DNA from: a virus
Lineage: Duplodnaviria > Caudoviricetes
IMG/VR virus record: IMGVR_UViG_3300023440_000007
Coordinates: 1-61,254 of that record
Length of the DNA stretch: 61,254 bases
Strand: one strand, 5' to 3'
Part shown: one piece after another, positions 7,362 through 30,078 of the stretch
Layout: the number at the start of each line of letters is the position of its first letter
Numbering within the stretch: position 1 is the stretch's first letter
The notes under the pieces: generated by a model
What the model was told of the DNA's origin: nothing
The model's input: the letters and a program-made list of their open reading frames with translations, nothing else
Database searches by the model: none
Made by a program: the position numbers and the translations under genes

Positions 7362-7793
7362 TTACTTGTTGTAACGCTTAGCAAGCGCAGCATACACCGC
7401 GCGCGCCGCCGCTATAGTAGCGGCCAAGCTGGGCGCGGGCATACCGGGCTTGCACGCAGGCGCGTGCTTGGCCACCAGTTTAGTGGCCGCAGCAACATGC
7501 TGCGGGGCCACAAACACGGCATGGCCATGCTTGTGGTACCAGCTAAACTGGTGCCGCACGCCTGCGGCACGCCAGGCACCCTGCATAGTGGCCATAGTAG
7601 CACCGCTATGCTGCGCCAACAAACGCCCCTTTAACTGGGCGCCTGCGGCACGGTAAGGGTACCCCGGGCAAGCGCACACAACACAGTGTGCGCCCGCCTT
7701 GGGCGCTTGGGCGCTTGGCACGCCAGGCCAGGCCGCCGCAGCGGCCATAGTGGCGTAAAAAGCGCCAGGCGTGGTAGGTGCCTGCATGGGCAC
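7362..7793 (-). CDS. Early-island protein with no Asp or Glu (143 aa, Ala-rich, basic)
   Basis: GCAAGGGGG RBS shared with the neighbouring cassettes, own terminator downstream, TAA stop; no D or E in the translation. Confidence 0.7.
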   Translation of the reverse strand: MPMQAPTTPGAFYATMAAAAAWPGVPSAQAPKAGAHCVVCACPGYPYRAAGAQLKGRLLAQHSGATMATMQGAWRAAGVRHQFSWYHKHGHAVFVAPQHVAAATKLVAKHAPACKPGMPAPSLAATIAAARAVYAALAKRYNK

Positions 7794-8470: not shown

Positions 8471-8770
8471 TTAGGAGTCCAGCGCCGTAACCTGGTAAGT
8501 CACAGGCGGCTGAGCGTACTGCCTAACCTGTTCGAGCGTGAGCTCCTTGCCACGCAAGTTGGGCGGCAGGTTAAGCGGAATCTCCGTAACCTTGGTGGCA
8601 AGCGCTGCCAAGTGCAGCGGGAGGACGCCAATAACGTGCTTACCGGCGATCTCCCTGGCAGGATCCGTCACGTGCATAATGCACGCAACGGTGCCCTGGT
8701 CGTCAATAAGCCCCAGCTCCTTAATGTACGAGAGCAGGGCCGGATGGCGTGTAACGATGACCTTTTCCAT
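8471..8770 (-). CDS. Csx16-like (Cas_VVA1548 family) protein; candidate anti-type III CRISPR ring nuclease
   Basis: VTRHPA...VIGVLPLHLAA...LNLPPNLRGKELT matches the Csx16 pattern SRHPGA...VIGTLPVHLAA...LDLP..LRG.ELS; no cas operon in the window. Confidence 0.75.
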   Translation of the reverse strand: MEKVIVTRHPALLSYIKELGLIDDQGTVACIMHVTDPAREIAGKHVIGVLPLHLAALATKVTEIPLNLPPNLRGKELTLEQVRQYAQPPVTYQVTALDS

Positions 8771-9116: not shown

Positions 9117-9365
9117 TTAAGCCGTAAAGCCGGTTTCGATCCCGCCCCCGTACTTACGGCAAAAAGCCACGATCCGCAGCTGCCGCTTGGGCATAACGGC
9201 AACCGCGCGGTTACCGAAGACCGTGTGGTTGTGGTAGGCCCACACGGCGTCGACGATCTGCTGCGGCTTAAAGCCAAGCAGCAGGCCGCGAACGAACGAT
9301 GACAGCGGCAGGGTAACGCCCTGCCAGCTGATCCAAGTACCATGCCTGGTAATTTCGATCTTCAT
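9117..9365 (-). CDS. Early cassette hypothetical protein
   Basis: 82 aa; shared promoter/RBS; terminator hairpin ~9086-9110. Confidence 0.8.
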   Translation of the reverse strand: MKIEITRHGTWISWQGVTLPLSSFVRGLLLGFKPQQIVDAVWAYHNHTVFGNRAVAVMPKRQLRIVAFCRKYGGGIETGFTA

Positions 9366-9776: not shown

Positions 9777-10325
9777 CTACTTGTTGGCGTAAATCGGCAA
9801 CTGCACGTTGCCGGGTCGTCTGTATTTGTACTGCGTTACGGCAGCCAGCATCCTGTAGGCGCAAGCCGTAACCTTAAGCGGGTCAGCGGCGGCAAGGCGG
9901 GCCGGTCCAACCAGGGCCTTGGCCAGCTCAATATGCTGCCGCTTAACCCAAATGGCGGCGGTCAAAGCAAGGCCGTCAATGCAAACGGCCACGTCGCCAA
10001 ACGGCTTGGCCCAATCAGGGGCCTGTCGTTCCGGGTTATTGTCTCCCCAAAACAGCGTAAGGCCGTCGTCCACGCTGGCAACATGCTGCAAAGCCGTGCT
10101 GTACAGCTTGCGCATGTCATCGTAGGGCAGGTCAAATGCCCCAAGCGCGTGGTCAATAACCTGCGTGGGCAGGTCGTAGGCATTGCCATACACCCACACA
10201 GGGTACAGGTCTTCCTGGCGGGCAATAATGGCAAAATCGCCAAACACGCCGCCGTAGCCGTCGTCGTCCCCGTTGGGCACGTACGCGGCCAAGTCATCGT
10301 ACAAGCTGGTTGTGTTGTTGGTCAT
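9777..10325 (-). CDS. Early cassette hypothetical protein
   Basis: 182 aa; shared promoter/RBS; terminator ~9737-9765. Confidence 0.85.
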   Translation of the reverse strand: MTNNTTSLYDDLAAYVPNGDDDGYGGVFGDFAIIARQEDLYPVWVYGNAYDLPTQVIDHALGAFDLPYDDMRKLYSTALQHVASVDDGLTLFWGDNNPERQAPDWAKPFGDVAVCIDGLALTAAIWVKRQHIELAKALVGPARLAAADPLKVTACAYRMLAAVTQYKYRRPGNVQLPIYANK

Positions 10326-10686: not shown

Positions 10687-11109
10687 CTAGATATACGGCC
10701 GACCATCCCCGCCTGGGCCTACCATGCCGTACAGCCCATTAGCGACGAAGGCGCAAGCCTTAGCCAACGACTTTTTGTTAACGGTGGAGCAGAACACCCT
10801 GCTGCCTACCTGGATAGTGCTGGAACACACCCTTACGCCACACAGATCTACATACCGTATGGCAAAACTAAAGTGCGCATGCGGAACTACGGCGAAGTAG
10901 CCCACATTGACCAACACCTTAAACCGCTGTATGACGTTCTCCACCTGCTGATACTCACCATTTACCAAATGCGTACCAGCAGTGAAGCGTTCCAGATCCG
11001 CCAGCTTTAGCCAGCCAACCCGACTGAGGACCTGGCACAAAACCGGCAGTTTGCTGGGATCGTCGCTGTGAGTAACCACGCACAGCGCATACAGGTTACG
11101 ATTTTCCAT
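10687..11109 (-). CDS. Early cassette hypothetical protein
   Basis: 140 aa; shared promoter/RBS; terminator ~10647-10678. Confidence 0.8.
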   Translation of the reverse strand: MENRNLYALCVVTHSDDPSKLPVLCQVLSRVGWLKLADLERFTAGTHLVNGEYQQVENVIQRFKVLVNVGYFAVVPHAHFSFAIRYVDLCGVRVCSSTIQVGSRVFCSTVNKKSLAKACAFVANGLYGMVGPGGDGRPYI

Positions 11110-11347: not shown

Positions 11348-11458
11348 CTAGTACAGGAACTTGGCGGTAGCGATAATGCCCACGCCGAACACACCGCCAA
11401 GAATCAGAGACCCTATGGCTGCCAGGCCGAGGATAATTGCGGCTTCGAGCTTATGCAT
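11348..11458 (-). CDS. 36-aa membrane peptide (below the ORF-track cutoff)
   Basis: MHKLEAAIILGLAAIGSLILGGVFGVGIIATAKFLY; start overlaps the stop of 11451..11828; terminator ~11295-11326. Confidence 0.65.
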   Translation of the reverse strand: MHKLEAAIILGLAAIGSLILGGVFGVGIIATAKFLY

Positions 11459-11828
11459 GGTTTAACGCCTCCTTAGCGCGCTTGATGGTATCGCCGTACA
11501 GGGAGGCCAGCGCATTGTACAGCAGGAGCGACATGGCATAGTGCGGTTCCATGCCGATGCTGTGCGCTTGGCTGTGGACAGCCGCTGGCCACGAGCTGCT
11601 AAGCAGGTCGTCGACGCGCTGCACATCCCTGGGGTGAATGAACACAACCTTGCCTTCGTACAAGGCCGTGGTGCTGTCGAGCTCGTGGTCCCACACAGGC
11701 CCAAGGATTACACGGTGGGTGCATCCCGCAGCCTTGAGGTCGTCCACGGTTGCCTGCCCATCAGCCGCCAGGCGGTATGCCCGATAGACGGGCTGGGCAA
11801 GCTTCAGCATATCCTGAATGTCTTGCAT
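11451..11828 (-). CDS. Early cassette hypothetical protein
   Basis: 125 aa; shared promoter/RBS. Confidence 0.8.
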   Translation of the reverse strand: MQDIQDMLKLAQPVYRAYRLAADGQATVDDLKAAGCTHRVILGPVWDHELDSTTALYEGKVVFIHPRDVQRVDDLLSSSWPAAVHSQAHSIGMEPHYAMSLLLYNALASLYGDTIKRAKEALNHA

Positions 11829-12080: not shown

Positions 12081-12545
12081 CTACGTGCCAAGACGCCAGC
12101 CCAACAGCGCGCCGTAGACGGCGGCGGCAAGCTGGGCCGACGGAACCGTACCCTGCAGCGCACCAGCCAAGGACTGGGCGGCGCTGCGGTCCTGCTTGCG
12201 CGGGAACACGGCGCAGTAGTACATCAGTTCGTTAACCGCCGGGCCGTAGTCCTGCTCGAAGTTGGGCAGCAGGTTTTCCATTTCCCGCATGGCCAACACA
12301 AAGTCGTCTTTGTTGTTGGCCATAAAGCCGCGCAGGTTTGCCCAAGTATCCTGCACGCTTCCCGTGCTGCACTCAGCAAGCGCAGCAACAAAAGCGGCCA
12401 GGTCATCCGGCAACGGCTTAGCGGAAAACACCCAAACCGGGACCGGACCAACCTGCTGCATCAACTTAGGCCAGCCCGGCCAATCAGGGTGCATGTTGTC
12501 GTTACGCACCCTAAGGATTTCGCTGTAGTACTGGTAAGCATCCAT
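12081..12545 (-). CDS. Early cassette hypothetical protein
   Basis: 154 aa; shared promoter/RBS; terminator ~12041-12070. Confidence 0.85.
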   Translation of the reverse strand: MDAYQYYSEILRVRNDNMHPDWPGWPKLMQQVGPVPVWVFSAKPLPDDLAAFVAALAECSTGSVQDTWANLRGFMANNKDDFVLAMREMENLLPNFEQDYGPAVNELMYYCAVFPRKQDRSAAQSLAGALQGTVPSAQLAAAVYGALLGWRLGT

Positions 12546-13052: not shown

Positions 13053-13601
13053 TCAGGCAGCCGCGTCGCTGGCCTGCTCGTTAACGAGCACCGGCACCGG
13101 CGGTGTGGACTCGGCCTTGGGCTTGGCCTCCTCCTTGGGCTTCTCCTTGGGCGTAATGGCGTCGACCAGGGCCTCATAAAAGCCCATGAACGCCTGCTTC
13201 CTAGCCGCCTCGAAGTTGGCCCGGAAGCTGGTAGCCTCGCCCTGGAACTTCTTGCGCCCCACCTTCAGCGCCCCGTCACTGCCGATGGACACGGCGTAAC
13301 GCTTGGCAAACTGAAGCGCCTTGCGCGTGTGGGTGGGATGGACCAGCGCCACGAAGCAGTTCTTGTAGTGCCAGGACAAGCCCCACCTGTCGCGCGGGAC
13401 GCTGCGCTTGCTGAACGCCTGGTTCAGCTCCCCCACGGTCTTGCCGGGGTTGTGGGTAATCACGTCCCACTTGACCGGGGCCGTGTCCCCACGGGGATTG
13501 TAACCCTCTCCCACCAGGGGGATGGCCACCGCGCAGCCCGCGTTGAGCATGCCACGGTAGCTGTTCTTCAACTCGCTGGCCTTGTAATAGGTATCACGCA
13601 T
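13053..13601 (-). CDS. Early cassette protein; possible DNA-binding domain related to the C-terminus of 42681..43400
   Basis: YNPRGDTA..KW....GKTVGEL....LSW....FVAL; AAGGAGG RBS; terminator ~13001-13031. Confidence 0.8.
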   Translation of the reverse strand: MRDTYYKASELKNSYRGMLNAGCAVAIPLVGEGYNPRGDTAPVKWDVITHNPGKTVGELNQAFSKRSVPRDRWGLSWHYKNCFVALVHPTHTRKALQFAKRYAVSIGSDGALKVGRKKFQGEATSFRANFEAARKQAFMGFYEALVDAITPKEKPKEEAKPKAESTPPVPVLVNEQASDAAA

Positions 13602-14365: not shown

Positions 14366-14367
14366 GC

Positions 14368-15675: not shown

Positions 15676-15676
15676 G

Positions 15677-17023: not shown

Positions 17024-17061
17024 AAGCTCTAAACTTTCTGATAGAAAGGAGGTGATAGTAA

Positions 17062-17346: not shown

Positions 17347-17389
17347 GCGTCACTTTTGGGGGTGCGGACGCTTTCGCACTCCCAGTTTT

Positions 17390-18378: not shown

Positions 18379-18390
18379 GGAGAACTGCAC

Positions 18391-18576
18391 ATGTTCAAGC
18401 TGAAAAACGAAGAAGAGATAGTCAAATTATGGAAAGAACAGTTCAATAGTGGATATCGCTCTCCCATTATGGAAAGGGAGAGGGAGAAAATCTATGAAGA
18501 ATTCTGTGAGAGGATCCTGAGTATTCTGAGATCTGATCCTACTTTGTCAAAGAGCTCAGATACTGATCCAAGGTAA
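18391..18576 (+). CDS. Hypothetical protein
   Basis: 61 aa, GAGGAG RBS. Confidence 0.6.
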   Translation: MFKLKNEEEIVKLWKEQFNSGYRSPIMEREREKIYEEFCERILSILRSDPTLSKSSDTDPR

Positions 18577-19015
18577 TCGTGTTAGAGTCTTTCATGACTC
18601 TCTCCATGCCCATTATCTTGAGTAACATCGCCAAAGACCTAGAGACGACTATATAACGCTCAAACGTTTCCCTATCGTCGCTTCCTCGTGCAATCTCAAT
18701 TTCCAGGTCCTGCGCAAGAGTCGCAAGACCGGCACATCGTTTGGCGATTTCTCTCTGAGCAGTCGTAACGTAGTCCATACCGCCAAGATCTGATATGAAC
18801 TGCTCATAAATCGAGGTCATTGTTCTGACTCGTGGATCGTTGGCGCTCAATCCATCGAGCCACTTCCCAGTTCTTGGATTGTATCTTACAAGATCCCTGG
18901 CCTTTGTCTTAAGGACCTTCTTGAGGAACTTCTTATCAGACTTCCTTCTTTTGTAGATTTCTTTAGTGGCAGAAGACATTGCCTTCTGCAAAGAATCTGA
19001 AATGCGCTCAGTCAT
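18539..19015 (-). CDS. Probable terminase small subunit
   Basis: DLGG.D.VT.AQ..I..R.A.L...Y....SL..LL..MG.ER..KD...TLDQYL resembles small proteins that usually precede GRRGGKS-type TerL in alphaproteobacterial (pro)phages. Confidence 0.55.
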   Translation of the reverse strand: MTERISDSLQKAMSSATKEIYKRRKSDKKFLKKVLKTKARDLVRYNPRTGKWLDGLSANDPRVRTMTSIYEQFISDLGGMDYVTTAQREIAKRCAGLATLAQDLEIEIARGSDDRETFERYIVVSRSLAMLLKIMGMERVMKDSNTITLDQYLSSLTK

Positions 19016-19040
19016 GTGAACTCCCTAATATGACAGCTGG

Positions 19041-19250
19041 ATGAAATTGTACATGTCAAAGAAACTAAAGAAAAGACTTTTGCCTGACGAGACTGTCACA
19101 GCATCGATATTGATAGACATATCGCTCTCATTATCTCTTACAAGAGAGGGCGAGGAGTACTGGAGAGAAGTCAAAGATAAGATATTCGACAACAATGAAT
19201 TGAGTTTGCCTATGTCTGAAGTATTAATGCTTGCATTGGGAGAACAGTAA
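19041..19250 (+). CDS. EG-x2-YW paralog family protein
   Basis: LSLTREGEEYWREV. Confidence 0.75.
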   Translation: MKLYMSKKLKKRLLPDETVTASILIDISLSLSLTREGEEYWREVKDKIFDNNELSLPMSEVLMLALGEQ

Positions 19251-19291
19251 GACGGACAAAGATCCATCCTAAGAAACTCTCAGAATGGAGA

Positions 19292-19561
19292 ATGATATTG
19301 AATAGGTCGGGAAGGATGAATTATAAAGAACTGAGAGAAAGATATTCTGAGAAGGCTCTAAAGCAATGCTTCTCAAGCCCGATGAGGGTTGGGCATCTGC
19401 TGATTGAGGCATTCAAGCTTGACGTTTCAAGAGAAGGGCTCAGATACTGGTATGAAGTAGACAGCCGAATTCCCAATAAAGAACAAGCTCTGAGCGTAGA
19501 TGAAGAGTACAAAATCCTGAGTGAGATAGGCGGATACTTGGAGAAGAAGTATATCAGGTGA
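19292..19561 (+). CDS. EG-x2-YW paralog family protein
   Basis: AFKLDVSREGLRYWYEV. Confidence 0.75.
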   Translation: MILNRSGRMNYKELRERYSEKALKQCFSSPMRVGHLLIEAFKLDVSREGLRYWYEVDSRIPNKEQALSVDEEYKILSEIGGYLEKKYIR

Positions 19562-19646
19562 ATATCTCACTGGTCTTTTTGTGAGAGACCAGTGAGATGT
19601 CCACTGATGGGCATCATATAGAACTTCTACATGGAAGGAGGAGACA

Positions 19647-20660
19647 ATGAGACCAAGTGATGCCAAGGAAGTCCTCAAGGCCATGTTCCGCATGAGGCGT
19701 CCGATCCTGCTGTCCGGGATGCCCGGCGTCGGCAAGACATCCATTGTCGTGCAGGCGTGTGAGAGCATCGGCATGAAGTATGTTCTGTTCCACCCGGCAG
19801 TCAGCGAGCCGACTGACTTCAAGGGCTATCCGTTCGTTGTGGATGGCCAGGCGCTGTTCCTGCCGTTCGGGGATCTTAAGATCCTGCTGGACGCGCAGGA
19901 GCCGATTGTGGCGTTTATGGACGACTTCGGACAGGGACCCGCTTCCACTCAGGCTGCCATCATGCAGCTGCTTGGGAGCCGACGGCTGAACGATCACGTT
20001 ATCAGCGACAACGTGACGTTCGTACTCGCCACCAATCGCAAGCAGGACAAGGCCAATGTGAGAGGCATCCTGGAGCCGGTGAAGTCCAGATGCATCACCA
20101 TCATCGAAGTGACGCCCAATCTGGACGATTGGTGTGAATGGATGATCAAGAACAACAAGTCTCCAGAGGTCGTCGCGTTTATCCGCTGGAGGCCTGAGTT
20201 CTTGGAGAAGTTCAAGCCCACCAACGACATGACCAATTCTCCATGTCCGCGCACGTTGGCGAACGCGGCGGACTTGGTCGCAAATCCGGACATCCCGAGG
20301 AACTGCTTGTTCGAAGTCCTCGCTGGCGCTGCCGGTGAGGCCTTCGCAGCGGAATTCACGGGATTTCTGAAGGTCTATCAGAACTTGCCGGATCTGGACA
20401 AGATGCTTCTGATGCCGGACCAGGCGCATATTCCCACTGACGAGGTCGGCGTGTTGTATGCCATCGCCGTCGGCTTGGGAGTGAGGGCTAACAAGAGGAA
20501 CTTCAAGAATTACACGAAGCTCCTCAGCAAGATGCCTGACGAGATGGCCGTCACATCCATCAGGACTGCCGTTTCCAAGACTCCTGACTTGGTTGAAACC
20601 AAGGAATACATGGAGGGATGGGGAAGGCAGTTCGCTGAGAAGATGTACTCTGACGACTGA
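19647..20660 (+). CDS. MoxR-like AAA+ ATPase
   Basis: Walker A GMPGVGKT, Walker B AFMDD, LATN sensor, SPCPR; AGGAGG RBS. Confidence 0.9.
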   Translation: MRPSDAKEVLKAMFRMRRPILLSGMPGVGKTSIVVQACESIGMKYVLFHPAVSEPTDFKGYPFVVDGQALFLPFGDLKILLDAQEPIVAFMDDFGQGPASTQAAIMQLLGSRRLNDHVISDNVTFVLATNRKQDKANVRGILEPVKSRCITIIEVTPNLDDWCEWMIKNNKSPEVVAFIRWRPEFLEKFKPTNDMTNSPCPRTLANAADLVANPDIPRNCLFEVLAGAAGEAFAAEFTGFLKVYQNLPDLDKMLLMPDQAHIPTDEVGVLYAIAVGLGVRANKRNFKNYTKLLSKMPDEMAVTSIRTAVSKTPDLVETKEYMEGWGRQFAEKMYSDD

Positions 20661-20744
20661 CATCTCGCTACAGCGCAGGGGAGCCAGCCAGTCTGGCTCC
20701 CTCACGGTGCAGCGAGAATGCGCCGAACAGAAAAGGAGGTAACA

Positions 20745-21572
20745 ATGACCAGTATTTCAGAGAAAGCGATGCTGTCCAGGTTTCGTGCGACGGGCTGGAG
20801 AGCCAGCAAGGCTGACAGAAGCGTGAGCGATGAGGTCGCCGAGAGCAAGAAGGCAGAGCGGACGGCTGGGAAGTATTACAAGAAGTTGATCCGCTGTGTC
20901 GCCATCGACGACTTCAATCGCACCGTAGCGTCTGCCAGAGCGTATCACAACAAGGTGACGCTGCCGTGGCTCGACTCGGACTTCCGGATCTTGCCGAACA
21001 AGTTCCATATGGAACATGTCCAGCAGATGGCGAAGTTCCGTGAGGAGTGCATGGAGCACGTCGAGCACTTCTGCCAGTTGTACGAGCTCTCCAAGAACGA
21101 TGCCAAGAAACGTCTTGGGGAGTTGTTCAACGAGCAGGACTATCCGCCCATCGAAGACCTGAAGGCCAAGTTCACCTTCACGGTGAGCTACATGCCGATC
21201 CCAGAGGTCGGGGACTGGCGTGTCGAGGACAGCCTGAAGGCTGAGACGGAGAAGATGCTGCTCGAAGCTCAGAACGAGGCTGTGAGAGACCTGCTTCGCA
21301 GACTCCACAGTCGCGTCGAGAAGCTTCACGAGAGGCTGTCGGATCCTACGGCATCGTTCAGGAACTCTCTGCTCGACAAGGTCAAAGGGCTTGTGGAAGT
21401 CATTCCGGACATGAACGTCATCGACAATGCTGACGTCAGGACGTTCACGGAAGAGGTCCGCAAGCACCTGTGCTCCGTGCATCCTGACGACCTCCGCAAC
21501 GACCTCGTGAAGAGGCAGAAGGTCTCTGACGCTGTGTCTGAGATCCTGGAGCGTATGAAGGGATACGTATAA
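20745..21572 (+). CDS. DUF3150-like phage protein
   Basis: TLPW....RILP...LGELFN..DYP; lies between the AAA and vWA genes; AAGGAGG RBS before ATG 20745. Confidence 0.7.
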   Translation: MTSISEKAMLSRFRATGWRASKADRSVSDEVAESKKAERTAGKYYKKLIRCVAIDDFNRTVASARAYHNKVTLPWLDSDFRILPNKFHMEHVQQMAKFREECMEHVEHFCQLYELSKNDAKKRLGELFNEQDYPPIEDLKAKFTFTVSYMPIPEVGDWRVEDSLKAETEKMLLEAQNEAVRDLLRRLHSRVEKLHERLSDPTASFRNSLLDKVKGLVEVIPDMNVIDNADVRTFTEEVRKHLCSVHPDDLRNDLVKRQKVSDAVSEILERMKGYV

Positions 21573-21599
21573 AAAGCAGCTCGAAATCCTGTATAGCTA

Positions 21600-21640
21600 T
21601 GGGGGGAGTCATATATGACTCCCCCTAGTCTCTTTTATTT
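21600..21640 (+). terminator. Intrinsic terminator
   Basis: GGGGGAGTCATA-TATGACTCCCCC followed by a U-rich tract. Confidence 0.7.
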
Positions 21641-21651
21641 GGATATTCGTT

Positions 21652-21867
21652 ATGCGATTTAATCAGACACTGAGACCCATGAGGAAGAGAATTCTCCTAA
21701 AAGACAGTGACGCTCCCCGTCTTCTAGTATATTCGTTTGATTGGTTTGCATCTAAAGACGGAGGAGATGAGGACGGATCAGATGAATTCTGGCATCAGAT
21801 ATATAGGAGAATGTCGTTCTGTAGAGCAGAAGTTCAACCCAATAGAAAACGGATAAAGAAGAAATGA
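21652..21867 (+). CDS. EG-x2-YW paralog (insertion variant)
   Basis: SFDWFASKDGGDEDGSDEFWHQI. Confidence 0.6.
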   Translation: MRFNQTLRPMRKRILLKDSDAPRLLVYSFDWFASKDGGDEDGSDEFWHQIYRRMSFCRAEVQPNRKRIKKK

Positions 21868-22094
21868 GAAAAAAGCTTCTATTAAGATATAGTGAAGCTG
21901 GAATATTATTGATACGCGCCTTCCATTGGCGTTTATCTAGAGATGGAGGAGTCCCATATCTATCAGACCTATATTGGTACTTAGTCCATAAAAGGATTAT
22001 GGGAAGCAATGCGGAAGTCAGAAGTAGGACCAAATCCGTCTACAATAAGAATAAAAAGGATCACATTACTGAATACCGTAAGATGCATCATTAA
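21864..22094 (+). CDS. EG-x2-YW paralog (insertion variant)
   Basis: AFHWRLSRDGGVPYLSDLYWYLV. Confidence 0.6.
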   Translation: MRKKLLLRYSEAGILLIRAFHWRLSRDGGVPYLSDLYWYLVHKRIMGSNAEVRSRTKSVYNKNKKDHITEYRKMHH

Positions 22095-22195
22095 GACATA
22101 CTGCGACTTCTCAAAAATAGACCATAGATGATAGACTATAACGAATAATTCGTTAGCTCATTACAGAGCATCCATAACCAGAAAAGGAGGTTGAA

Positions 22196-23476
22196 ATGAC
22201 CGCTCAACCTGGAAACGTGATCCAAGTGACCGTGATCAGCGAGGAAGAGAAGAACCGACTGGAGAAGCGTGCTGAGGAGCTCATCTCCAAAGCAAAGACG
22301 AAGGTCGTTCTAGACCATCCGGAATTCTCCATTTTCATTCTGACGTCGAAAATGGAACCGGATTGGTCCTTCCCAACGCTGGCGACTGATGGACAGTGGA
22401 TCAAGTATAATCCACACTTCATCTGCCAGTTCAAGGTGAAGCACATCAAGACTTTCTTGATGCATGAGTGCCTGCACATCATGATGCTTCACGCTTCCAG
22501 GCGTAGGAACAGACCCCATGTGAAGTGGAACATGGCCTGTGACTATGCGATCAATGCCCTGCTGGTCCAGTCCAAACAGGACTTCGGCATGAAACCTGGA
22601 GAATTCCTGTACGGCAAGGAATTCGAAGGAATGTCTGCCGAGGACATCTATGCCAAAATCCCCGATCCGCCTGAGAGGGAAGGTGGAAATGGGGATGGTG
22701 AATGTGAGGGCCAAGACAAGACTGGGAAGTCCAATGCTGGACACGGTCATACGAATGCAGGCGGATGCACCTGCACCATCCTGGATCCCAGGAATCCTGA
22801 TGGCTCTAAGATGACTGAGTCTCAAATCAAAGAGCTTGAGTCTCAGGTAAAGATCGCCGTCGCACAGTCTGAGGCGATTGCGAAGCAGTGCGGCAGAGAT
22901 CCTCTTGGAGTCAAAAGGATCCTGAAGGCCATCGAGGCTCCGGTTGTAGACTGGCGAACCCTGCTGGCTAATCTTGCGACAGAGATCGCCCACGACGACT
23001 ACACGTGGACCAAGGCTAATAGGAGATACGTCTATTCCGGCGCATTTCTACCGAGCCTTGAGAATCGCGAAGTCGGTCACATCGCATTCGTGATCGACAC
23101 GTCTGGATCGGTGTCTGACAAGGAAGTCAGCAAGGCTGCGGCAGCAGCGGAGGACATGTTCAATATCATCAATCCAAGCAGGATTGAGGTAATGTATGTG
23201 GACTATTCGCTGCACGGCATCCAGAATCTCGATGCCTCTGACCTTCCCTTCAAGCTTGAGATCAAGGGAGGGGGAGGGACGAGCTTCCGTCCTGCGTTCG
23301 AGCATATTAGCAAGAACGAGGACGACGAGCCTGTCGCATTGGTCTACGTGACCGATGGGTATTGTCGAGACTTCCCGAAGGAGGAGCCGGATTATCCAGT
23401 AATCTGGCTGCTTATCGGGGATTACGACAGGCGGTTCACTGCACCGTTCGGAGACGTTGTAAGAACAGACGAATAA
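22196..23476 (+). CDS. DUF2201-type metallopeptidase-like / vWA domain protein
   Basis: TLATDG, HECLH (HExxH), N.ACDYAIN, DTSGS MIDAS, GGGGTSF, VTDG. Confidence 0.9.
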   Translation: MTAQPGNVIQVTVISEEEKNRLEKRAEELISKAKTKVVLDHPEFSIFILTSKMEPDWSFPTLATDGQWIKYNPHFICQFKVKHIKTFLMHECLHIMMLHASRRRNRPHVKWNMACDYAINALLVQSKQDFGMKPGEFLYGKEFEGMSAEDIYAKIPDPPEREGGNGDGECEGQDKTGKSNAGHGHTNAGGCTCTILDPRNPDGSKMTESQIKELESQVKIAVAQSEAIAKQCGRDPLGVKRILKAIEAPVVDWRTLLANLATEIAHDDYTWTKANRRYVYSGAFLPSLENREVGHIAFVIDTSGSVSDKEVSKAAAAAEDMFNIINPSRIEVMYVDYSLHGIQNLDASDLPFKLEIKGGGGTSFRPAFEHISKNEDDEPVALVYVTDGYCRDFPKEEPDYPVIWLLIGDYDRRFTAPFGDVVRTDE

Positions 23477-23546
23477 GAGTATCTGACCAAACTATTCTGG
23501 GATCTTGTATAAGATCCCAGACTTTATCCATTTATATGAGGAGAGA

Positions 23547-23702
23547 ATGATAAATACAGAGAAAGATAAGGATGATCACACAAAGTGTGTTGTATATCTA
23601 CAACAGATGTTTCCATATAGAAACAGCATGGAAGGATGGGAATATTGGACTACAGTCTATTTTAGGATAATCTCTTTTTATAGAAGGGATGATATGGAAT
23701 AG
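23547..23702 (+). CDS. EG-x2-YW paralog family protein
   Basis: MFPYRNSMEGWEYWTTV; ATG at 23547 after GAGGAG. Confidence 0.7.
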   Translation: MINTEKDKDDHTKCVVYLQQMFPYRNSMEGWEYWTTVYFRIISFYRRDDME

Positions 23703-23717
23703 GATCTGGACATAGAC

Positions 23718-23906
23718 ATGAAAACAAACAAGAAAACAGAAGATACCGCAGTAAGTGAAGCCTCAGAAATTAGTCAGCAGATCTTTTTCTATGGTCTGAA
23801 TGGTAGAGAGGGCTGGGAATATTGGCGATATGCGTTCACTAAAATAAATGAAATCTTAGTTAAGAACTTAGTAGAACTGGAGGTGATGAAAACAGACAAT
23901 GATTGA
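23718..23906 (+). CDS. EG-x2-YW paralog family protein
   Basis: FFYGLNGREGWEYWRYA. Confidence 0.75.
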   Translation: MKTNKKTEDTAVSEASEISQQIFFYGLNGREGWEYWRYAFTKINEILVKNLVELEVMKTDND

Positions 23907-24042
23907 AGGGACAAGAGCATTCATGGACGATAGGATGGAGCTCTTAGATAGAGCATTCACATGGATCTGTTCAAGAGAAGGATCAGAGTATTGGACATAT
24001 GTATTTGAAGCTCTAGACAACCTAAGACCCGTGTATCCTTAA
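23899..24042 (+). CDS. EG-x2-YW paralog (47 aa, below the ORF-track cutoff)
   Basis: Hand translation: RAFTWICSREGSEYWTYV. Confidence 0.75.
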   Translation: MIEGTRAFMDDRMELLDRAFTWICSREGSEYWTYVFEALDNLRPVYP

Positions 24043-24061
24043 TACGGAATGAAGCTAATAT

Positions 24062-24289
24062 GTGAACTGGATAGAAATGGACACTCTAGGAAATAGAATA
24101 ACGGTAAATATCGGTGCGCTTCTAAATGAAGCTTTCCATTGGAGATGTTCTGAAGAAGATTATGTTTACTGGCATCAGATCTATGATGCTTTGAATGATC
24201 TTGACAGTATCAGCACCGAAATCATATTCGTCCATAAGCCATTTGGACCACCCAAAATCTGTGTTTCCCCTAAGGGCAGGAGCAGATGA
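24062..24289 (+). CDS. EG-x2-YW paralog family protein
   Basis: AFHWRCSEEDYVYWHQI. Confidence 0.7.
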   Translation: MNWIEMDTLGNRITVNIGALLNEAFHWRCSEEDYVYWHQIYDALNDLDSISTEIIFVHKPFGPPKICVSPKGRSR

Positions 24290-24462
24290 AAGGAGTAAAA
24301 CCAAAAGTGTTCATAAGAATTTGGCGTAGGAATGAGAGACTCCTATGGAAGACCGGGATATTCTGGGTAAAGACAAGAGAAGGACTAGAATACTGGAAAG
24401 CCGTGGGAGAAAGATTCAGCATTAGACATGAGCAAGACGACGTTGATCTATACAATCAATAA
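24286..24462 (+). CDS. EG-x2-YW paralog (58 aa, below the ORF-track cutoff)
   Basis: Hand translation: GIFWVKTREGLEYWKAV. Confidence 0.75.
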   Translation: MKGVKPKVFIRIWRRNERLLWKTGIFWVKTREGLEYWKAVGERFSIRHEQDDVDLYNQ

Positions 24463-24628
24463 AGGAAAAGAACAGCCTCCCTGGTTTAGAGGGATAGTTT
24501 GGGAAGCAGTAATACATCCAGAAACAGAATCTATGAAGTTAATGGATATCAGCTTCTGGTATGACTGTTCGAGAGAGGGATTCGATTACTGGCTCTATAT
24601 CTTAAGAAGGATAGAAAGTGAAATATAG
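24428..24628 (+). CDS. EG-x2-YW paralog family protein
   Basis: SFWYDCSREGFDYWLYI. Confidence 0.75.
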   Translation: MSKTTLIYTINKGKEQPPWFRGIVWEAVIHPETESMKLMDISFWYDCSREGFDYWLYILRRIESEI

Positions 24629-24836
24629 CATAGTTGAAATACAAGAAGACCTTCCAGAATATTCTCTTTGCAGAAAGTATGGGGTGATTCCTTCAAAGGA
24701 ACATTACCCATATCAGAGTGAATATGATCTGAGTTGGATATCTGCATTGCTTGATAGTTGCTTCATATTCAGACATTCTATGGAAGGACCAGAGTATTGG
24801 ATGGAAATCCGCAAGAAGCTGAATTTCATAAAGTGA
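24618..24836 (+). CDS. EG-x2-YW paralog family protein
   Basis: CFIFRHSMEGPEYWMEI. Confidence 0.75.
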   Translation: MKYSIVEIQEDLPEYSLCRKYGVIPSKEHYPYQSEYDLSWISALLDSCFIFRHSMEGPEYWMEIRKKLNFIK

Positions 24837-24847
24837 AATCTGGTAAG

Positions 24848-25021
24848 ATGCCAGAGGAATACATGAATCCTGCTAAGAGAAGGAAGAAAAGATTCCTATT
24901 CGATCCTATAGAAGCAGCAAGACTGCTGGATCGCTCATTCATTTGGCATAGATCTAGAGAGGAAGACAGCTATTGGATATTCGTTCAGAGAAGGATCAGA
25001 ACATCATGCCAGAACGAGTAG
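24848..25021 (+). CDS. EG-x2-YW paralog family protein
   Basis: SFIWHRSREEDSYWIFV. Confidence 0.7.
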   Translation: MPEEYMNPAKRRKKRFLFDPIEAARLLDRSFIWHRSREEDSYWIFVQRRIRTSCQNE

Positions 25022-25254
25022 AAGTGAGGAAAAGACATAAAAGCAGTAATACGTATCTATGCATCAATACTGAGACTCCAAAGCCCAAGTGGTTTAGAGG
25101 AATAGAGTGGGATTTTCGTGTAAGCGAGAAATCTATGTTAGAGAAATTGGCCATTGTTTCCTTCTGGTTCTCAGAGCCAATGGAAGGGTATGAGTATTGG
25201 AGAGAGGTCTATGATCGGATAAAATTCTTGAACAGGAAAGACAGGGAAACATGA
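25006..25254 (+). CDS. EG-x2-YW paralog family protein
   Basis: SFWFSEPMEGYEYWREV; PKWFRG shared with neighbours. Confidence 0.75.
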   Translation: MPERVEVRKRHKSSNTYLCINTETPKPKWFRGIEWDFRVSEKSMLEKLAIVSFWFSEPMEGYEYWREVYDRIKFLNRKDRET

Positions 25255-25568
25255 AACTTCCTATCAAGATAAATGCAGAAAATATGAGACCAAAGTGGTT
25301 CAGTGGGGTCACGTATCACTTAACAATAAGAGAGAGTACTGAGATACATCTGTTACTAAATTCAGCTTTCTGGTTCAGTGCCTCCAATGAAGGAGCAGAA
25401 TACTGGTATGAAGTCAGAAATAGGATAGAGAGCCATACAAAAGAACAGGAATATGTCTTTCCATACGAAACAGCTATGGAGCTGCTAGATAAGTCATTTC
25501 TCTGGGCTTCTACCAGAGAAGAAGTAAGATACTGGATGCACGTATATTATGGATTTCAAAGAATTTGA
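25251..25568 (+). CDS. EG-x2-YW paralog, two motif copies
   Basis: AFWFSASNEGAEYWYEV and SFLWASTREEVRYWMHV. Confidence 0.75.
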   Translation: MKLPIKINAENMRPKWFSGVTYHLTIRESTEIHLLLNSAFWFSASNEGAEYWYEVRNRIESHTKEQEYVFPYETAMELLDKSFLWASTREEVRYWMHVYYGFQRI

Positions 25569-25665
25569 ATCTAAGAGTCCTACAAGCCTTAGGATCCGTT
25601 CCATTCAGACATCAAGATGAAAAAGAAAATTCCATACTCAAAAGAGATCAGTACCAGAAGAACAA

Positions 25666-25932
25666 ATGGAAACGACTCTAATGAACGAAATATTCATAAG
25701 GACCATAATAAGAAAGGAAATAAGTAAGATACACTTTTCTGTCATATTTGACTTCTGCTCAACAAGAGAGGGCAAAGAATACTGGAATGGATCTTTGTAC
25801 TGTCATGTCTATGTATTTTACTTTTACAGAGATTTCTGCATAAAAGGGAGCAAGATCGATAAATGGCTAGTAGGAAAACATGAAAGAGATTTCATTGAAT
25901 ATACAAATACGAGCTCTATTGATGCGCCTTAA
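25666..25932 (+). CDS. EG-x2-YW paralog family protein
   Basis: IFDFCSTREGKEYWNG. Confidence 0.7.
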   Translation: METTLMNEIFIRTIIRKEISKIHFSVIFDFCSTREGKEYWNGSLYCHVYVFYFYRDFCIKGSKIDKWLVGKHERDFIEYTNTSSIDAP

Positions 25933-26200
25933 GAAGAGACCCAAACAGACAATGGATGAAGAAAGATACAACAATATATTAGACCTATTTGTTAGAGACT
26001 CTAGAACTCTATACATAATAGAACCAGCCTTCTATACCTCAGTATCCCACGAAGACTGGGAATATTGGTACGAAGTATTCAATAGAATGTCTTCACTCTT
26101 TGCAAGAGAATTGAAAGCGAATGGAGTGTTTGAAGGAATTGGCGTCATAAGACCAAAAGTCAGGATGAGAAAGAAACCGCCGACGACGAAGCTATTCTGA
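25880..26200 (+). CDS. EG-x2-YW paralog family protein
   Basis: AFYTSVSHEDWEYWYEV. Confidence 0.7.
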   Translation: MKEISLNIQIRALLMRLKKRPKQTMDEERYNNILDLFVRDSRTLYIIEPAFYTSVSHEDWEYWYEVFNRMSSLFARELKANGVFEGIGVIRPKVRMRKKPPTTKLF

Positions 26201-26265
26201 CTGTGTTCCTCCACGCATGGTCAGTGAAGTATGTGAACCTAGTGGAGAAGAAAAGGAGGGTATAA

Positions 26266-26595
26266 ATGCACGAATCTGACCTTGTTGACGAGTATGCGCA
26301 AGTCTGTAAGCGCATCGAGTCTCTTAACAAGAAGAAACAGAAGCTCAAGCAGGAGCTTCTACGTCTCACTGGGAATACCTTCATCGGCAACAAGTATGCC
26401 GTAGTGAAAGTCGTCTCAACGAGGGAGACGCTGAAGACGGCAGAAGTCAAGAAGTTCCTTGGCAAACGCCTTGAAAAGTTCCTGCGCGTGACTGATGTTA
26501 TCTCCTTGAAGATTGTAAAGCTCGACAAGAGAACATCGAGCAGGATTGTTCCTCTCGATGAATTCTCAAAAGAGCAGAAGGAGAAAGTCGCGTGA
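26266..26595 (+). CDS. Hypothetical protein (coiled-coil N-terminus)
   Basis: 109 aa, AAGGAGG RBS. Confidence 0.8.
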   Translation: MHESDLVDEYAQVCKRIESLNKKKQKLKQELLRLTGNTFIGNKYAVVKVVSTRETLKTAEVKKFLGKRLEKFLRVTDVISLKIVKLDKRTSSRIVPLDEFSKEQKEKVA

Positions 26596-26816
26596 TAAGA
26601 ACCATTCTGTACTGTACGATCGCTGCTGGACTCACAGTAGTCGGGTTCTTCTGGGGACTCTATCTCCTATTGGAGAACCTGGATAAAGTAGTGAAGTAGT
26701 GATCATTATTCAAACTCGGCCACAGAAATGTGGCCATTCTTTTATCCATTTCATGCAGTGCAACATGAAAAGGAGGAATGGAGAGACCATACATCAAAAG
26801 ATGAGGAGAAAAACAA

Positions 26817-27818
26817 ATGAAGCATGGTTGGAAGTATTCCCCATACCGGATTGTGCGTGAAGGAACACGTCACTTCGGCGTGGGAACATGCGAAGAGTGT
26901 GGATTTGAAGTGAAGATCGGACTCTCAAAGAACTTGCCCAGAAATGTAATGATGGAAAAGTTCGCCCAGAAGGGTCTGTTTCCTTCACACAATATCCCCA
27001 CCAAGAAAGCGAAGTTCAGAACTGGGGAGTATCCCCCATTCATCTGCAAATCTTGTGAAGACAAGAGGAAGCAGAAGAACGTCGCTATTCAGAAACCTCA
27101 AAAGGAGGAGACAATGACTACTTTCCCGCAAGGAAAGGACCTGGTTGTGTACATGTCCATCACGTCTCCTGCTGCTCGCAGTGTGTACCACAGGGTCAAC
27201 TTCGCCCTTGATAGAGACGAGTGGGAGAAGATGGGAAGTCCGAAATTCGCCAGGATCCTGATAGGAGAAAACGGACATACCATTAAGGATACCTCCAAGC
27301 TGATCATTCAGTTCACTTCGGAGGGAAACGGAAAGTCCGTTCCTGGGTATAGGACGCTGGCGATCGGAGACTACGATTACGGCAAAACCCTTAATCGTAA
27401 AGTCAGGTTCACGACGTCAGCAAGATACCTTCCCATAAAGGACGTGACCTGCTTATGCGGGGCGACTCCCATCAAGGGGACGCTTTCCTACTCCATGGGA
27501 AACAAGTACCGACAGTTCGTTTCCAATGACAACTTCGTCGGAATCAAGAACTCTCTCATGCAGAGGAAGCGTGGAGTTCCCAAAACCGGACTCAAGCCCG
27601 TATCCGCTGTCGGTAAGTTCGTACAAGTAGAACAGACCAGAAAGAAGAACTATATGAGTCAGACTGATCACTCATACAGTCTGGAAGACGGTAGAGTGAT
27701 CTGTGACATGCTGGAAGGCTGGGTCAAATGGATGCGCGGCAGAGGATTCCAAGTATCCCTGAGCGTTGATCCAAACAACCCTGACAAGATCAACATCAAG
27801 GCATACATGGACCTGTAA
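26817..27818 (+). CDS. Hypothetical protein with N-terminal Zn-ribbon-like CxxC pairs
   Basis: CEEC...CKSC; internal AAGGAGG-ATG at ~27114 may give a second start. Confidence 0.8.
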   Translation: MKHGWKYSPYRIVREGTRHFGVGTCEECGFEVKIGLSKNLPRNVMMEKFAQKGLFPSHNIPTKKAKFRTGEYPPFICKSCEDKRKQKNVAIQKPQKEETMTTFPQGKDLVVYMSITSPAARSVYHRVNFALDRDEWEKMGSPKFARILIGENGHTIKDTSKLIIQFTSEGNGKSVPGYRTLAIGDYDYGKTLNRKVRFTTSARYLPIKDVTCLCGATPIKGTLSYSMGNKYRQFVSNDNFVGIKNSLMQRKRGVPKTGLKPVSAVGKFVQVEQTRKKNYMSQTDHSYSLEDGRVICDMLEGWVKWMRGRGFQVSLSVDPNNPDKINIKAYMDL

Positions 27819-27825
27819 AAAACTG

Positions 27826-27854
27826 TTGCATTTCCTGTCCAGCCTCGCTAGTAT
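27826..27854 (+). promoter_or_regulatory. Sigma70-type promoter
   Basis: TTGCAT-17 nt-TAGTAT. Confidence 0.75.
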
Positions 27855-27860
27855 GTCTGT

Positions 27861-27990
27861 CGTGGAGTAAGCAACCCCCTTGCTAGCTCTGCTTTGGAGG
27901 AGATGGAGGGCAACCCTGGGGATCATCCAGTCCAACCTGTCCGGTTGATCCTTGTCATCACTACTCCATCTCCTCCAGCTTTTTCATTTA
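27861..27990 (+). ncRNA. Candidate sRNA with a C-rich loop complementary to the early-cassette RBS
   Basis: 5' hairpin AGCAA-CCCCC-TTGCT; 3' stem GGAGGAGATGGAG/CTCCATCTCCTCC followed by a U-tract; promoter upstream. Confidence 0.65.
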
Positions 27991-27999
27991 GGAAATAAT

Positions 28000-29290
28000 C
28001 AATCTATTCAGTCTTTCAGATAACGGTTCCGTGAACAGGATCAGCTCTAAGACACCCAAAATATGGACTGATCGTCCATCAGCGATAAGGATCCTGTTCG
28101 AACGAGATGATCTCCGTCATGATTGGCGGGGATCTTTTTGTTCCTCCTACGGAGATTCTCAAATGTAGGAGACGGTTGACATAGCCTGACCGATGTTCCA
28201 TTAGGAACCGAGCCAGATTCGGCCATTTAGCTCTGCGGGGCGGTGCGCCGATGGGGGGCTGAGACAGGCATAAGGAGGCTGTCTCTATAGTTTCCATTAT
28301 AGAGACGGGAAAGTGACGAGGTGAAAAAGACTCAGGCATCATTGGTAGTGATGACCGTTTAGGGTTGCCTATGTTGCTCCCGTCGGTGGTTCTATGCGCA
28401 ACGTAGAGGCTAGACGGCCTGTAATCGTCTACAGCTCTTATAGAGCCAATTGCTGGTAGTTGTTACCAGCAGAGACCCTTGTAGGAGCCATAGACGATCA
28501 TACGACCATCTAGTAGAATTTTCTATGGCTGCCGCAGAAGTCGCTTCTATAGAGTGCGTATAGACCAGTGGATCTTGCGTAAAAGGTGACCGGCCGACCT
28601 ACCTAATCCCGCTGACTGTGTGTTAGATCGTGAGATATAAGTCGCATGTCTTTGCTTAGAGCTCAGAGACATGTTCCATCCTCTAGCCGCATCCTTCCTC
28701 CGGGGTACGGCTACGATGGTTAGGATGAAGTTCTCACCGTCTAGCTGGCAGCGTGGAGCTCTTCAATTCATCCATCACGGGTTGGGATCCTGATGGAGTG
28801 AATGAATCTACACGAGAAGATCAGCGGGTTGCATATCCCTACGGCGCTAATGTCAGTCAATCCCCTTAGCATTAGCTGTTTGATCCATCATCTAGGGTTC
28901 TTTGAATATTCCGGTATTGAACTGGATACTGATACTGGAGTATGAACCTTAGATGATGGATTGAATACTCTACTCCCTGGTAGGGGGTGGAGTGTGCTAA
29001 TGAGGGGGAGAGAGAAGTCATGAATCTACCACGAAATTAGCACACGACTAGAAATGGAGGGGGTGGGTGGCGGGTAAAGAATAACCGCTACTCGTAGAGT
29101 AGGAGAAGTCCTGCTCGTAGAGTAGGCCGCTAGGTAGGACCATACCTGTAAACAACATCTACGCTTGGGATTGGAGGCGTCTGGAAGGAGTGTGTCTAGA
29201 GAATGAAATGAATCTATGACTCAAGCCGTATTCAATTGAGTGGAATATATTTCTTAAGCTGTAAGAATCAGTCTCATGCGTTCAATGGGA
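28000..29290. ncRNA. ~1.3 kb hairpin-rich non-coding region; candidate large structured RNA(s)
   Basis: No credible ORF; long stems, e.g. 28883-28900 pairs with 28944-28961, and 28861-28876 with ~28996-29010. Confidence 0.45.
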
Positions 29291-29299
29291 TACTAGAAT

Positions 29300-29530
29300 A
29301 TGTGGGGAATACATAAAACCATGATGAAGATGGAGAAGATAGGGAATAAGATCTATTTCTATAGGAACAAGTATCTACCTGATTTGGAAGATCAGTTGGC
29401 CCTATATAGAATATTGAGGATTAATGTGAAGGCTCTACGTAATTCAAGAGAGCGGCAGGCATACTGGGAATATGTGATGTACTCTATTGAGACGTATAAA
29501 TCATATGAACGGCCTGGTTTGGACAGATGA
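29300..29530 (+). CDS. EG-x2-YW paralog family protein
   Basis: LRNSRERQAYWEYV. Confidence 0.7.
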   Translation: MWGIHKTMMKMEKIGNKIYFYRNKYLPDLEDQLALYRILRINVKALRNSRERQAYWEYVMYSIETYKSYERPGLDR

Positions 29531-29715
29531 TCATAAACAGGGACATACTTCCTGAAATGTTCAGAAATATCGAAAATATGTCCATCGTTGGAACCATAAT
29601 CTTCTATAATGGGAGAACGAGGGAGGGATGGAAGTACTGGCTTGCAGTCACTTCTAAGATCGAGGAGAGGTTCATTGAGAACTCTGAATCTATGGATCAA
29701 AGTGAATGGAGGTAA
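29527..29715 (+). CDS. EG-x2-YW paralog family protein
   Basis: IFYNGRTREGWKYWLAV. Confidence 0.75.
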   Translation: MIINRDILPEMFRNIENMSIVGTIIFYNGRTREGWKYWLAVTSKIEERFIENSESMDQSEWR

Positions 29716-29716
29716 A

Positions 29717-29860
29717 ATGAGCAGGTCTAGAAATAGAATCTCTAGGAAATTCGCCATTATCTATGACGCTTTGGACATATATAAAACCAGAGAGGGATGG
29801 AAGTATTGGTTTGATGTATCTGTAGAAATATTCAAGCTCATGGAAAGAGGGAAGATATAG
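29717..29860 (+). CDS. EG-x2-YW paralog family protein
   Basis: LDIYKTREGWKYWFDV; ATG at 29717 after GGAGG. Confidence 0.75.
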   Translation: MSRSRNRISRKFAIIYDALDIYKTREGWKYWFDVSVEIFKLMERGKI

Positions 29861-29862
29861 AA

Positions 29863-30078
29863 ATGAAGAGATTCAAAAGAATAGGATCAATAGAAGCAAA
29901 ATATCTGAGAATAGAAGATAAAGAGCTCAATAACAAAATACTTCGTCTATTCCAAAATGTGTTCTCATGGATGAGCGCTAGAGAGGGACGATTCGAAAAT
30001 TCGAACAAGCCGTATGATTACTGGTACTATGTCACAATGATTGTCAGATGTGACGGTAAATTCGTTATGAACGCTTGA
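29863..30078 (+). CDS. EG-x2-YW paralog (insertion variant)
   Basis: VFSWMSAREGRFENSNKPYDYWYYV. Confidence 0.75.
   Translation: MKRFKRIGSIEAKYLRIEDKELNNKILRLFQNVFSWMSAREGRFENSNKPYDYWYYVTMIVRCDGKFVMNA

Follow-up and report, generated by a model that had tools for sequence, protein, structure and literature searches.

The non-coding element at 27862-27984 raises the question of whether a phage can use a short RNA to control the ribosome-binding sites of a distant set of its own genes. A sequence-only reading of positions 27826 to 27990 had taken this element for a small RNA gene, antisense to the Shine-Dalgarno (SD) regions of early genes. We analysed the whole IMG/VR record IMGVR_UViG_3300023440_000007 (61,254 bases; completeness estimate 61%), referred to below as the window. 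Its genes lie in two blocks. Small genes on the minus strand run leftward from ~14,700 down to 1, and genes on the plus strand run rightward from ~14,786 up to 56,927. The rightward block contains the element and encodes an ATPase, an HNH-like protein, a DnaB-like helicase, a second helicase and a family A DNA polymerase, the last being ~30% identical to its nearest phage records (Edwardsiella and Vibrio phages of 71-79 kb).

Directly upstream of the element lies the plus-strand ORF 26817..27818 (333 aa; stop codon 27816-27818), in whose product no known family was recognised. The element starts 44 nt past this stop codon in a block transcribed from the plus strand, with all neighbouring genes in the same direction. 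It is most simply read as a 3'UTR that closes with a terminator and that may or may not give rise to a small RNA. In the same way as the seeds of 3'UTR-derived sRNAs, it is placed between a stop codon and the putative terminator of the same mRNA. It is best read as a 3'UTR or terminator-proximal module rather than a proven separate gene, and we refer to it as module c.

Folding of the plus-strand RNA 27860-27990 gave a structure of -54.1 kcal/mol (z -4.9) in two parts, hairpin 1 and a long hairpin. The core of hairpin 1, AGCAA-CCCCC-TTGCT, was present at 27870-27884 as the sequence-only reading had described, with the CCCCC loop at 27875-27879. In its extended form the hairpin spans 27862-27892 and has 12 pairs, the outer stem being formed by 27862-27868 and 27886-27892 around the inner stem AGCAA/UUGCU. 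On the plus strand it reached -13.6 kcal/mol (z -3.5), which none of 200 shuffles equalled, whereas the same region on the minus strand reached -8.4 kcal/mol (z -0.5) and was equalled by 59 of 200. Because its outer stem relies on three G.U pairs, the hairpin is good on the plus strand only.

The second part is a long irregular hairpin at 27894-27984, closed by a basal stem of 14 perfect base pairs (27895-27908 with 27964-27977; 15 pairs in the MFE structure) and followed by a C and a plus-strand-specific run of five U residues (TTTTT, 27980-27984). The terminal stem and U-tract had thus been seen correctly before, but the stem is longer than the 13 bp then given. Our terminator scan did not list this structure since the 55 nt enclosed by the stem exceed the 8-nt loop limit of the scan. 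It is the probable intrinsic terminator of both the gene 26817..27818 and module c.

What sets the element apart is its complementarity to distant leaders. The segment CCCCTTGCTAG (27876-27886, plus strand) is complementary at every position to the leader/SD motif CTAGCAAGGGG, which occurs in six exact copies in the window, all on the minus strand: one is the complement of 27876-27886 itself, and the other five stand in leaders, at 8779-8789, 9374-9384, 10333-10343, 11119-11129 and 12554-12564, 7-10 nt before an ATG. These leaders belong to the minus-strand ORFs 8471..8770, 9117..9365, 9777..10325, 10687..11109 and 12081..12545. The 11-nt match to five early-gene leaders was therefore claimed correctly, and for the right genes; the positions quoted for them (8471, 9117, 9777, 10687 and 12081) are the low ends of the ORFs and not the sites of the motif. 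The overlapping segment CAACCCCCTTGC (27872-27883) pairs at 12 of 12 positions with GCAAGGGGGTTG at 7793-7804 (minus strand), 8 nt before the ATG at 7787, and this agrees exactly with the second match that had been proposed, to the leader of 7362..7793. All six duplexes (11/11 with five leaders, 12/12 with one) take in the SD sequence AAGGGG.

A single 11-mer match says little, as a 1.5-kb control query from the region of the element shared dozens of exact 11-mers with the rest of the window; what counts is the identity and position of the match. With up to one mismatch, CTAGCAAGGGG had ten matches in the window compared with 0.83 expected, a number reached in none of 100 shuffles. Six of the ten are leaders, and the other four (27876, 13041, 11334 and 12596) are all non-coding and all antisense to local transcription. 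The matches at 11334 and 13041 stand 7-10 nt before terminators that our scans listed, and that at 27876 stands 8 nt before a 15-pair hairpin with five U residues. With 82 terminator-like sites listed by the scans over both strands of 60 kb, ~1% of positions fall as near upstream of one, and we estimate the chance that two of the four matches fall so near to terminators at ~6×10−4. The placement thus departs strongly from chance, given that two more hairpins of the anti-leader kind directly precede intrinsic terminators. Hairpins with a CCCC-containing loop number 18 in the window (both strands), and the only three that precede a terminator are module c and these two, modules a and b.

Modules a and b are found in 3'UTRs of the minus-strand genes. 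Module a (13009-13062) consists of a 9-bp hairpin, GGCUGCCUG / loop AACCCCUUGC / CAGGCGGCC, which begins within the stop codon of ORF 13053..13601 and is followed after 3 nt by a terminator (13031-13009 and UCUUUUU); its fold reached -41.2 kcal/mol (z -4.85), and the anti-leader site at 13041 lies in the loop. Module b (11303-11351; z -4.76) has a 5-bp hairpin, CUAGC / loop UUCCCCCU / GCUAG, which begins within the stop codon of an ORF (11348..11458) for a hydrophobic product of 36 aa and is followed after 7 nt by a terminator (11326-11303 and UUCUUUUU). Here the anti-leader site at 11334 takes up the loop and the 3' arm. Both match the leader motif at 10 of 11 positions, compared with 11 of 11 for module c. 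The stems of the three modules differ (AGCAA/UUGCU in module c, CUAGC/GCUAG in b, GGCUGCCUG/CAGGCGGCC in a), as do their loop sizes (5, 8 and 10 nt across the set), and all three carry a C-run in the loop.

The presumed targets form a family of seven repeated cassettes on the minus strand, with ATGs at 13601, 12545, 11828, 11109, 10325, 9365 and 8770. They share one plan: an upstream block of ~30 nt (GACTGATGCACTTTRGATTTGCGTTTGAYA), a leader stem-loop in which the cassette copies differ by compensatory changes, the motif and the ATG. Two cassettes have variant leaders, CUAGCAGCAAAGGAGG in 13053..13601 and CUAGCAAAGGGG in 11451..11828, the latter with the motif variant CTAGCAAAGGGG at 11838. 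The eighth gene, with its ATG at 7787, has the SD GCAAGGGGG only. A terminator-like hairpin listed by the scan ends five of the seven cassettes; the hairpins after 9117 and 8471 were unlisted. By eye, the cassette promoter could be read neither as a sigma-70 nor as a Bacteroidetes-type promoter, and the promoter scan listed it in one of the seven.

The leaders are also predicted to fold on themselves. When folded singly, all seven paired GGGG with an upstream CCCU box (for example CCCCTTACTAG at 12596-12606, minus strand, in the 5' half of a leader) and CUAGC with GCUGG around the central stem-loop. The alignment consensus gave the same cis fold, with 13 pairs of which three show double changes. 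Such pairing in cis would explain why the whole 11-mer is conserved, with no need for a trans-acting RNA. It also weakens the proposal that an sRNA is the reason why these genes use AAGGGG, given that the predicted cis fold alone constrains the motif. Moreover, if the SD is already sequestered in cis, as predicted, what a trans-acting anti-SD RNA would gain is unclear.

We computed pairing energies, net of accessibility costs, on full-length leaders and in a separate run on shorter start regions; we left out a duplex prediction for full-length RNAs, in which the duplexes were unrealistically long. Module c holds six of its 11 pairing nucleotides inside its own stem, and opening them costs 9.8 kcal/mol. 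The net energies were -4.8 to -6.1 kcal/mol on the four leaders paired through the seed and -11.5 kcal/mol on that of the gene with its ATG at 7787. On the leaders of 12081..12545 and 11451..11828 the best site was not the seed, and no site was predicted on that of 13053..13601. The loop of module a is fully open (opening cost 0.1 kcal/mol), and its net energies were -9.7 to -11.8 kcal/mol on five leaders and -6.4 kcal/mol on that of 12081..12545. No interaction of module a was predicted with the leader of its own cassette, 13053..13601, and that with 11451..11828 reached -2.0 kcal/mol at another site. The two variant leaders are accordingly predicted to be non-targets or weak targets of module a. 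When module c was ranked against 134 start regions (shorter targets), all seven leaders of the GGGG-containing GCAAGGGG/GCAAAGGGG type were among the top 20; the first place was held by an unrelated gene (-11.6 kcal/mol), and other unrelated starts scored equally.

From these data we propose, as a serious possibility that stops short of being probable, that trans-acting anti-SD RNA modules repress the cassettes as a regulon. Module c would be the terminal part of a plus-strand transcript that ends past 26817..27818, and one of three paralogous modules, each a C-loop hairpin joined to a terminator, of which the other two would be 3'UTRs of minus-strand cassettes. The RNA 3' ends, whether still attached to the mRNA or trimmed to small RNAs, would pair in trans with the leader sequence CUAGCAAGGGG, and the targets would be the at least six repeated cassettes that share it. 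First contact would be made by the C-rich loop with the GGGG of the SD; the duplex would then spread to 10-12 bp and block ribosome loading. Once rightward transcription runs, module c, which comes from the block with the replication genes, would further repress the leftward cassettes.

A wider version of this proposal seems doubtful to us: a circuit made of RNA only, in which the SD of every cassette leader is held in a cis stem and three dispersed RNA ends shut the regulon in trans through the one 11-nt motif, two of them from cassettes with leaders that escape by mutation and one from the rightward block with the replication genes. A structured RNA of 1.3 kb downstream of module c, described below, may belong to the same circuit.

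The alternative that survives best is a passive 3' end, which we regard as possible, if somewhat unlikely. The element would then be the terminator of 26817..27818 with hairpin 1 as a stabilising structure, and its anti-leader sequence would be a leftover from an ancestor shared with the 5' half of the leaders, spread by recombination and without function in trans. The position 44 nt after a stop codon among plus-strand neighbours is what such an end would show. By eye, modules a-c resemble the 5' half of the cassette leaders, that is, the 5' box (CCCYURCYAGGC) and the hairpin that follows it, so the anti-leader sequence could be inherited and not selected for pairing in trans. Assembly-graph break points and a contig depth of 1.7-3x in the cassette region fit recombining or shared modules. 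The modest net pairing of module c also keeps alive the reading in which inherited pieces were joined to terminators. Several observations speak against a passive origin. Three diverged stems have all kept the C-run in the loop, and module c matches the SD side at 11 of 11 positions while the cis boxes pair with it imperfectly. Modules a and b are carried by exactly the two cassettes with variant leaders, those predicted to escape (chance of this estimated at ~1 in 21). Finally, module c lies 15 kb away in the block of the other strand, with no further cassette sequence around it. Trans-acting mimics of the cis partner, selected as such, are favoured by the full complementarity of module c, by the loops that all three modules kept and by the apparent immunity of the producing cassettes.

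It is improbable, in our judgement, that the C-loop hairpins and the CCCU boxes of the leaders are instead bound by an RNA-binding protein of the phage or its host, such as a boxB/nut-like antiterminator or a translational regulator, and that the RNA pairing is incidental. In phage lambda the boxB hairpin stands before tR1, and a stem of 5 bp with a loop of 5 nt, located after a gene and directly before a terminator, would suit such a role. A second terminator-like structure on the plus strand (28109-28139) follows module c after ~120 nt, so regulated read-through would make sense. Against a protein ligand, the loops (5, 8 and 10 nt) and stems of the three modules differ, the complementarity to the leaders extends over 10-12 nt and hence over more than a loop-binding protein needs, and no antiterminator-like protein was present among the few neighbour proteins searched.

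Slightly less probable again is that the element forms the 5' domain of a longer structured RNA or leader, from 27860 to ~29200, which is transcribed through leaky terminators and uses the CCCCC loop for intramolecular or other contacts. The region that follows (27990-29299, plus strand) has no plus-strand ORF longer than 47 aa, let alone one of at least 60 aa, and each of the six frames is interrupted by all three stop codons. Among overlapping windows of 120 nt on the plus strand, 13 of 34 in this region had z < -3, compared with 4 of 66 in coding sequence, and in many of them the plus-strand energies were well below those of the minus strand. The region may encode one or several new RNAs. 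A single long RNA starting with module c is harder to reconcile with the two plus-strand terminator-like structures that intervene, at 27894-27984 and at 28109-28139 (stem-loop 28109-28134 and TTTTT), of which the second resembles the cassette terminators. When the region was folded as a whole, both hairpins of module c remained local, and no Rfam family matched. Another hairpin of this region shows UCCUCC in its loop. We also considered TAG as a sense codon, which opens a stretch of 182 codons (28180-28725), and rejected it; the product did not look protein-like in our judgement.

We hold it to be very improbable that the element is an independent sRNA gene driven by a sigma-70 promoter of its own, as the sequence-only reading had it. 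The sequence TTGCAT-17-TAGTAT is present on the plus strand at 27826-27854 (hexamers 27826-27831 and 27849-27854), but it agrees with the consensus at 7 of 12 positions (3/6 and 4/6) and was not among the sites listed by the promoter scan of the region. The scan found six promoter-like sites in 26500-30000 compared with 5.6 in shuffles, and sites of equal quality number 1573 in the window (12.8 per kb per strand). The repeated cassette promoters of this phage look different. We judged the claimed promoter to be uninformative, and a separate transcription unit is therefore unsupported.

A small protein gene is scarcely credible: the unit, previously called ORF-less, is so for ORFs of at least 35 aa and is overlapped below that size by short minus-strand ORFs and by a 34-aa plus-strand ORF (27894..27998; TTG start, with GGAGGAG before an internal ATG at 27903), but none of these has a usable SD spacing, the GGAGGAG stands 2 nt from the ATG with both inside the 14-bp stem, and the AAGGGG of the minus strand, named earlier as a possible RBS of a peptide, has no start at a workable distance, the only one after AAGGGGG being a TTG 1 nt away that opens a frame of eight codons, below the 20 aa from which ORFs were listed.

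Searches for relatives gave little to compare. Rfam at gathering scores found two tRNAs only in the whole window, and at E <= 1 the region 27700-29400 matched ftsZ-DE only (20.2 bits, gathering score 72.2). Neither blastn of 26800-29400 against phage records nor a search with the 333-aa upstream protein against viral and metagenome contigs produced a match, and a cassette protein had no relatives in genome contigs. A 17-mer from the hairpin matched one viral and 20 metagenome sequences whose flanks around the motif were unlike the unit; blastn of the window against these loci gave nothing at 1e-5. A leader 14-mer had 61 single matches and a pattern of leader hairpin and motif had one, all of which we take as chance. 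The HNH-like and DnaB-like proteins had relatives of 25-39% identity only, with synteny of at most two genes, and a scan of these distant loci for repeated 10-mers found nothing comparable. The collections searched thus held no relative closer than 25-39% protein identity and none with the motifs. Across 27743-28390, no variants occurred in three sets of DNA contigs, all from the same study of microbial mats; one of the sets is possibly the source of the record.

Bacterial sRNAs whose C-rich loops pair with an SD are well known, and antisense RNAs serve immunity in a few temperate phages. CpxQ and SroC are 3'UTR-derived sRNAs of enterobacteria, and modules a, b and c are like them in that the seed lies between a stop codon and the predicted terminator of the mRNA itself. 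In phage T4, the endoribonuclease RegB and the repressor RegA shut off early mRNAs via a feature of their ribosome-binding sites; those effectors are proteins, whereas the effector proposed here is an RNA and the mark is a shared 11-nt leader motif. The c4 RNA of P1/P7 is encoded at one site and complementary to the ribosome-binding region of another site of the same phage, as we propose for module c. Our region had no match to the c4 family RF01695, either at the gathering score or at E <= 1, and c4 controls one immunity operon, whereas at least six cassettes share the target site here. The c4 antisense RNA family RF01695 is listed with a distribution in phages (PMC2864571).

In mechanism the module, if active, would parallel SprX (RsaOR) and the RsaE-type UCCC sRNAs of Staphylococcus aureus. 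A C-rich accessible loop of these RNAs pairs with the SD or RBS of the target and blocks translation, which is an established sRNA mechanism; SprX is encoded by converting phages (PMC4005690). In our phage the pairing is predicted only. Our modules have no sequence or structure homology to it (no Rfam match), and their predicted targets are the phage's own cassettes instead of host genes. Furthermore, the seed of module c is partly buried in a stem, and there are three modules, dispersed over 3'UTRs.

In their genomic setting the cassettes are reminiscent of promoter-early stem-loops (PeSLs), which are described as mobile regulatory cassettes of T4-like phages (PMC4122927). Here, too, a run of small ORFs has a repeated promoter and stem-loop module before each (seven cassettes), the region looks plastic (depth steps and contig breaks), and most target genes are followed by a terminator-like hairpin. 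Unlike in PeSLs, terminator and promoter are not composite and stand 150-400 nt apart, and antisense partners acting in trans are absent from the PeSL description as available to us (PMC4122927). None of our observations places the phage among the T4-like phages; its DNA polymerase is the distant one noted above.

Should the element be no more than a terminator that inherited its sequence, the observation would be an ordinary one. If the trans-acting modules are real, the phage would repress a set of its own repeated cassettes via one shared leader motif, unlike in the known cases, and several RNA modules borne on 3'UTRs, with producer cassettes that are immune to them, would represent a new design of temporal control without a protein of the RegA/RegB type. 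The full circuit, if true, would be the RNA counterpart of T4 RegB/RegA. The case offers a simple pairing rule of 11 nt that is open to compensatory mutation, and it illustrates a way in which regulatory modules, once repeated, can give rise to trans-acting regulators of themselves.

In the contigs of sequencing run X1, the region of repeated minus-strand small genes (the cassettes; 8400-15784) was covered at a depth of 72-129, compared with 43.5 at 15755-28390, and contig breaks were located at 9512-9541, 11977-12006 and 15755-15784. We conclude that 8400-15784 is either repeated, perhaps as a collapsed terminal repeat, or common to two or more of the genomes sampled. The minus-strand spacers between the cassettes (8100-10700 and 12900-13000) carry many copies of a ATCCAGCG-N3-5-TCACAAGC-like motif as well as many TTCATCAAAGAAGATGA-like palindromes, and a further repeat, TTGCAAACCTATGCA, is present twice at ~8000-8080. 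Elsewhere in the window, a TCAAGAGAAGGA-like 10-12-mer recurs on the plus strand at seven sites of the rightward gene block (17612, 19427, 23971, 24374, 30165, 30541 and 31501), and two minus-strand tRNA genes were found, Arg(TCT) at 1586-1661 and Leu(TAA) at 1903-1979.

The product of the minus-strand cassette ORF 8471-8770 matched Pfam family PF09652 (Cas_VVA1548, a putative CRISPR-associated protein; E 3.7e-18). No Pfam family was obtained for the six other cassette products searched (9117, 9777, 10687, 11451, 12081 and 13053), nor for the alanine-rich 141-aa product of the ORF starting at ATG 7787, an eighth gene, whose leader is complementary to part of the plus-strand unit of a hairpin and a putative terminator at 27862-27984 (module c). 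The GC content rises to 63% at 7000-8000. Another minus-strand ORF (11348-11458) encodes a strongly hydrophobic peptide of 36 aa in which one membrane helix was predicted by eye; the start codon (ATG) of this ORF overlaps the terminal bases of ORF 11451..11828, and module b, a similar hairpin-terminator unit, begins within its stop codon.

Downstream of module c, a second putative plus-strand intrinsic terminator (28109-28142) follows 120 nt past the first, and its 3' arm and tail (CGGGGATCTTTTTGTT) agree at 15 of 16 positions with a cassette terminator on the opposite strand (12053-12038). At 28691-28706, the loop of a hairpin (AUCCU / UCCUCC / GGGGU) displays UCCUCC, a sequence resembling the canonical anti-SD. 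Inspection by eye also showed that the plus-strand CTGGTAGGGGG (28977-28987) could pair over 11 of 11 bases with CCCCTTGCTAG (27876-27886), the module c sequence complementary to the shared cassette leader, if three G.U pairs are allowed; the chance of such a pairing in the region is roughly estimated at ~0.01. In the local fold, the CTGGTAGGGGG site is taken up by a hairpin of its own.

The 1.3 kb at 27990-29299 lacks a credible ORF. TAG is frequent here (38 in the three plus-strand frames of the 1311 nt at 27990-29300); reading it as a sense codon opens 182 codons at 28180-28725 (plus strand), and this candidate was rejected, the product appearing unlike a protein. The GC content of the stretch is 49%, compared with ~40% in its surroundings, and its plus-strand RNA structure is unusually strong, with z < -3 in 13 of 34 windows as against 4 of 66 coding windows. 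A search of Rfam gave no match for 27990-29299, and this stretch could represent one or several phage RNAs of no known family.
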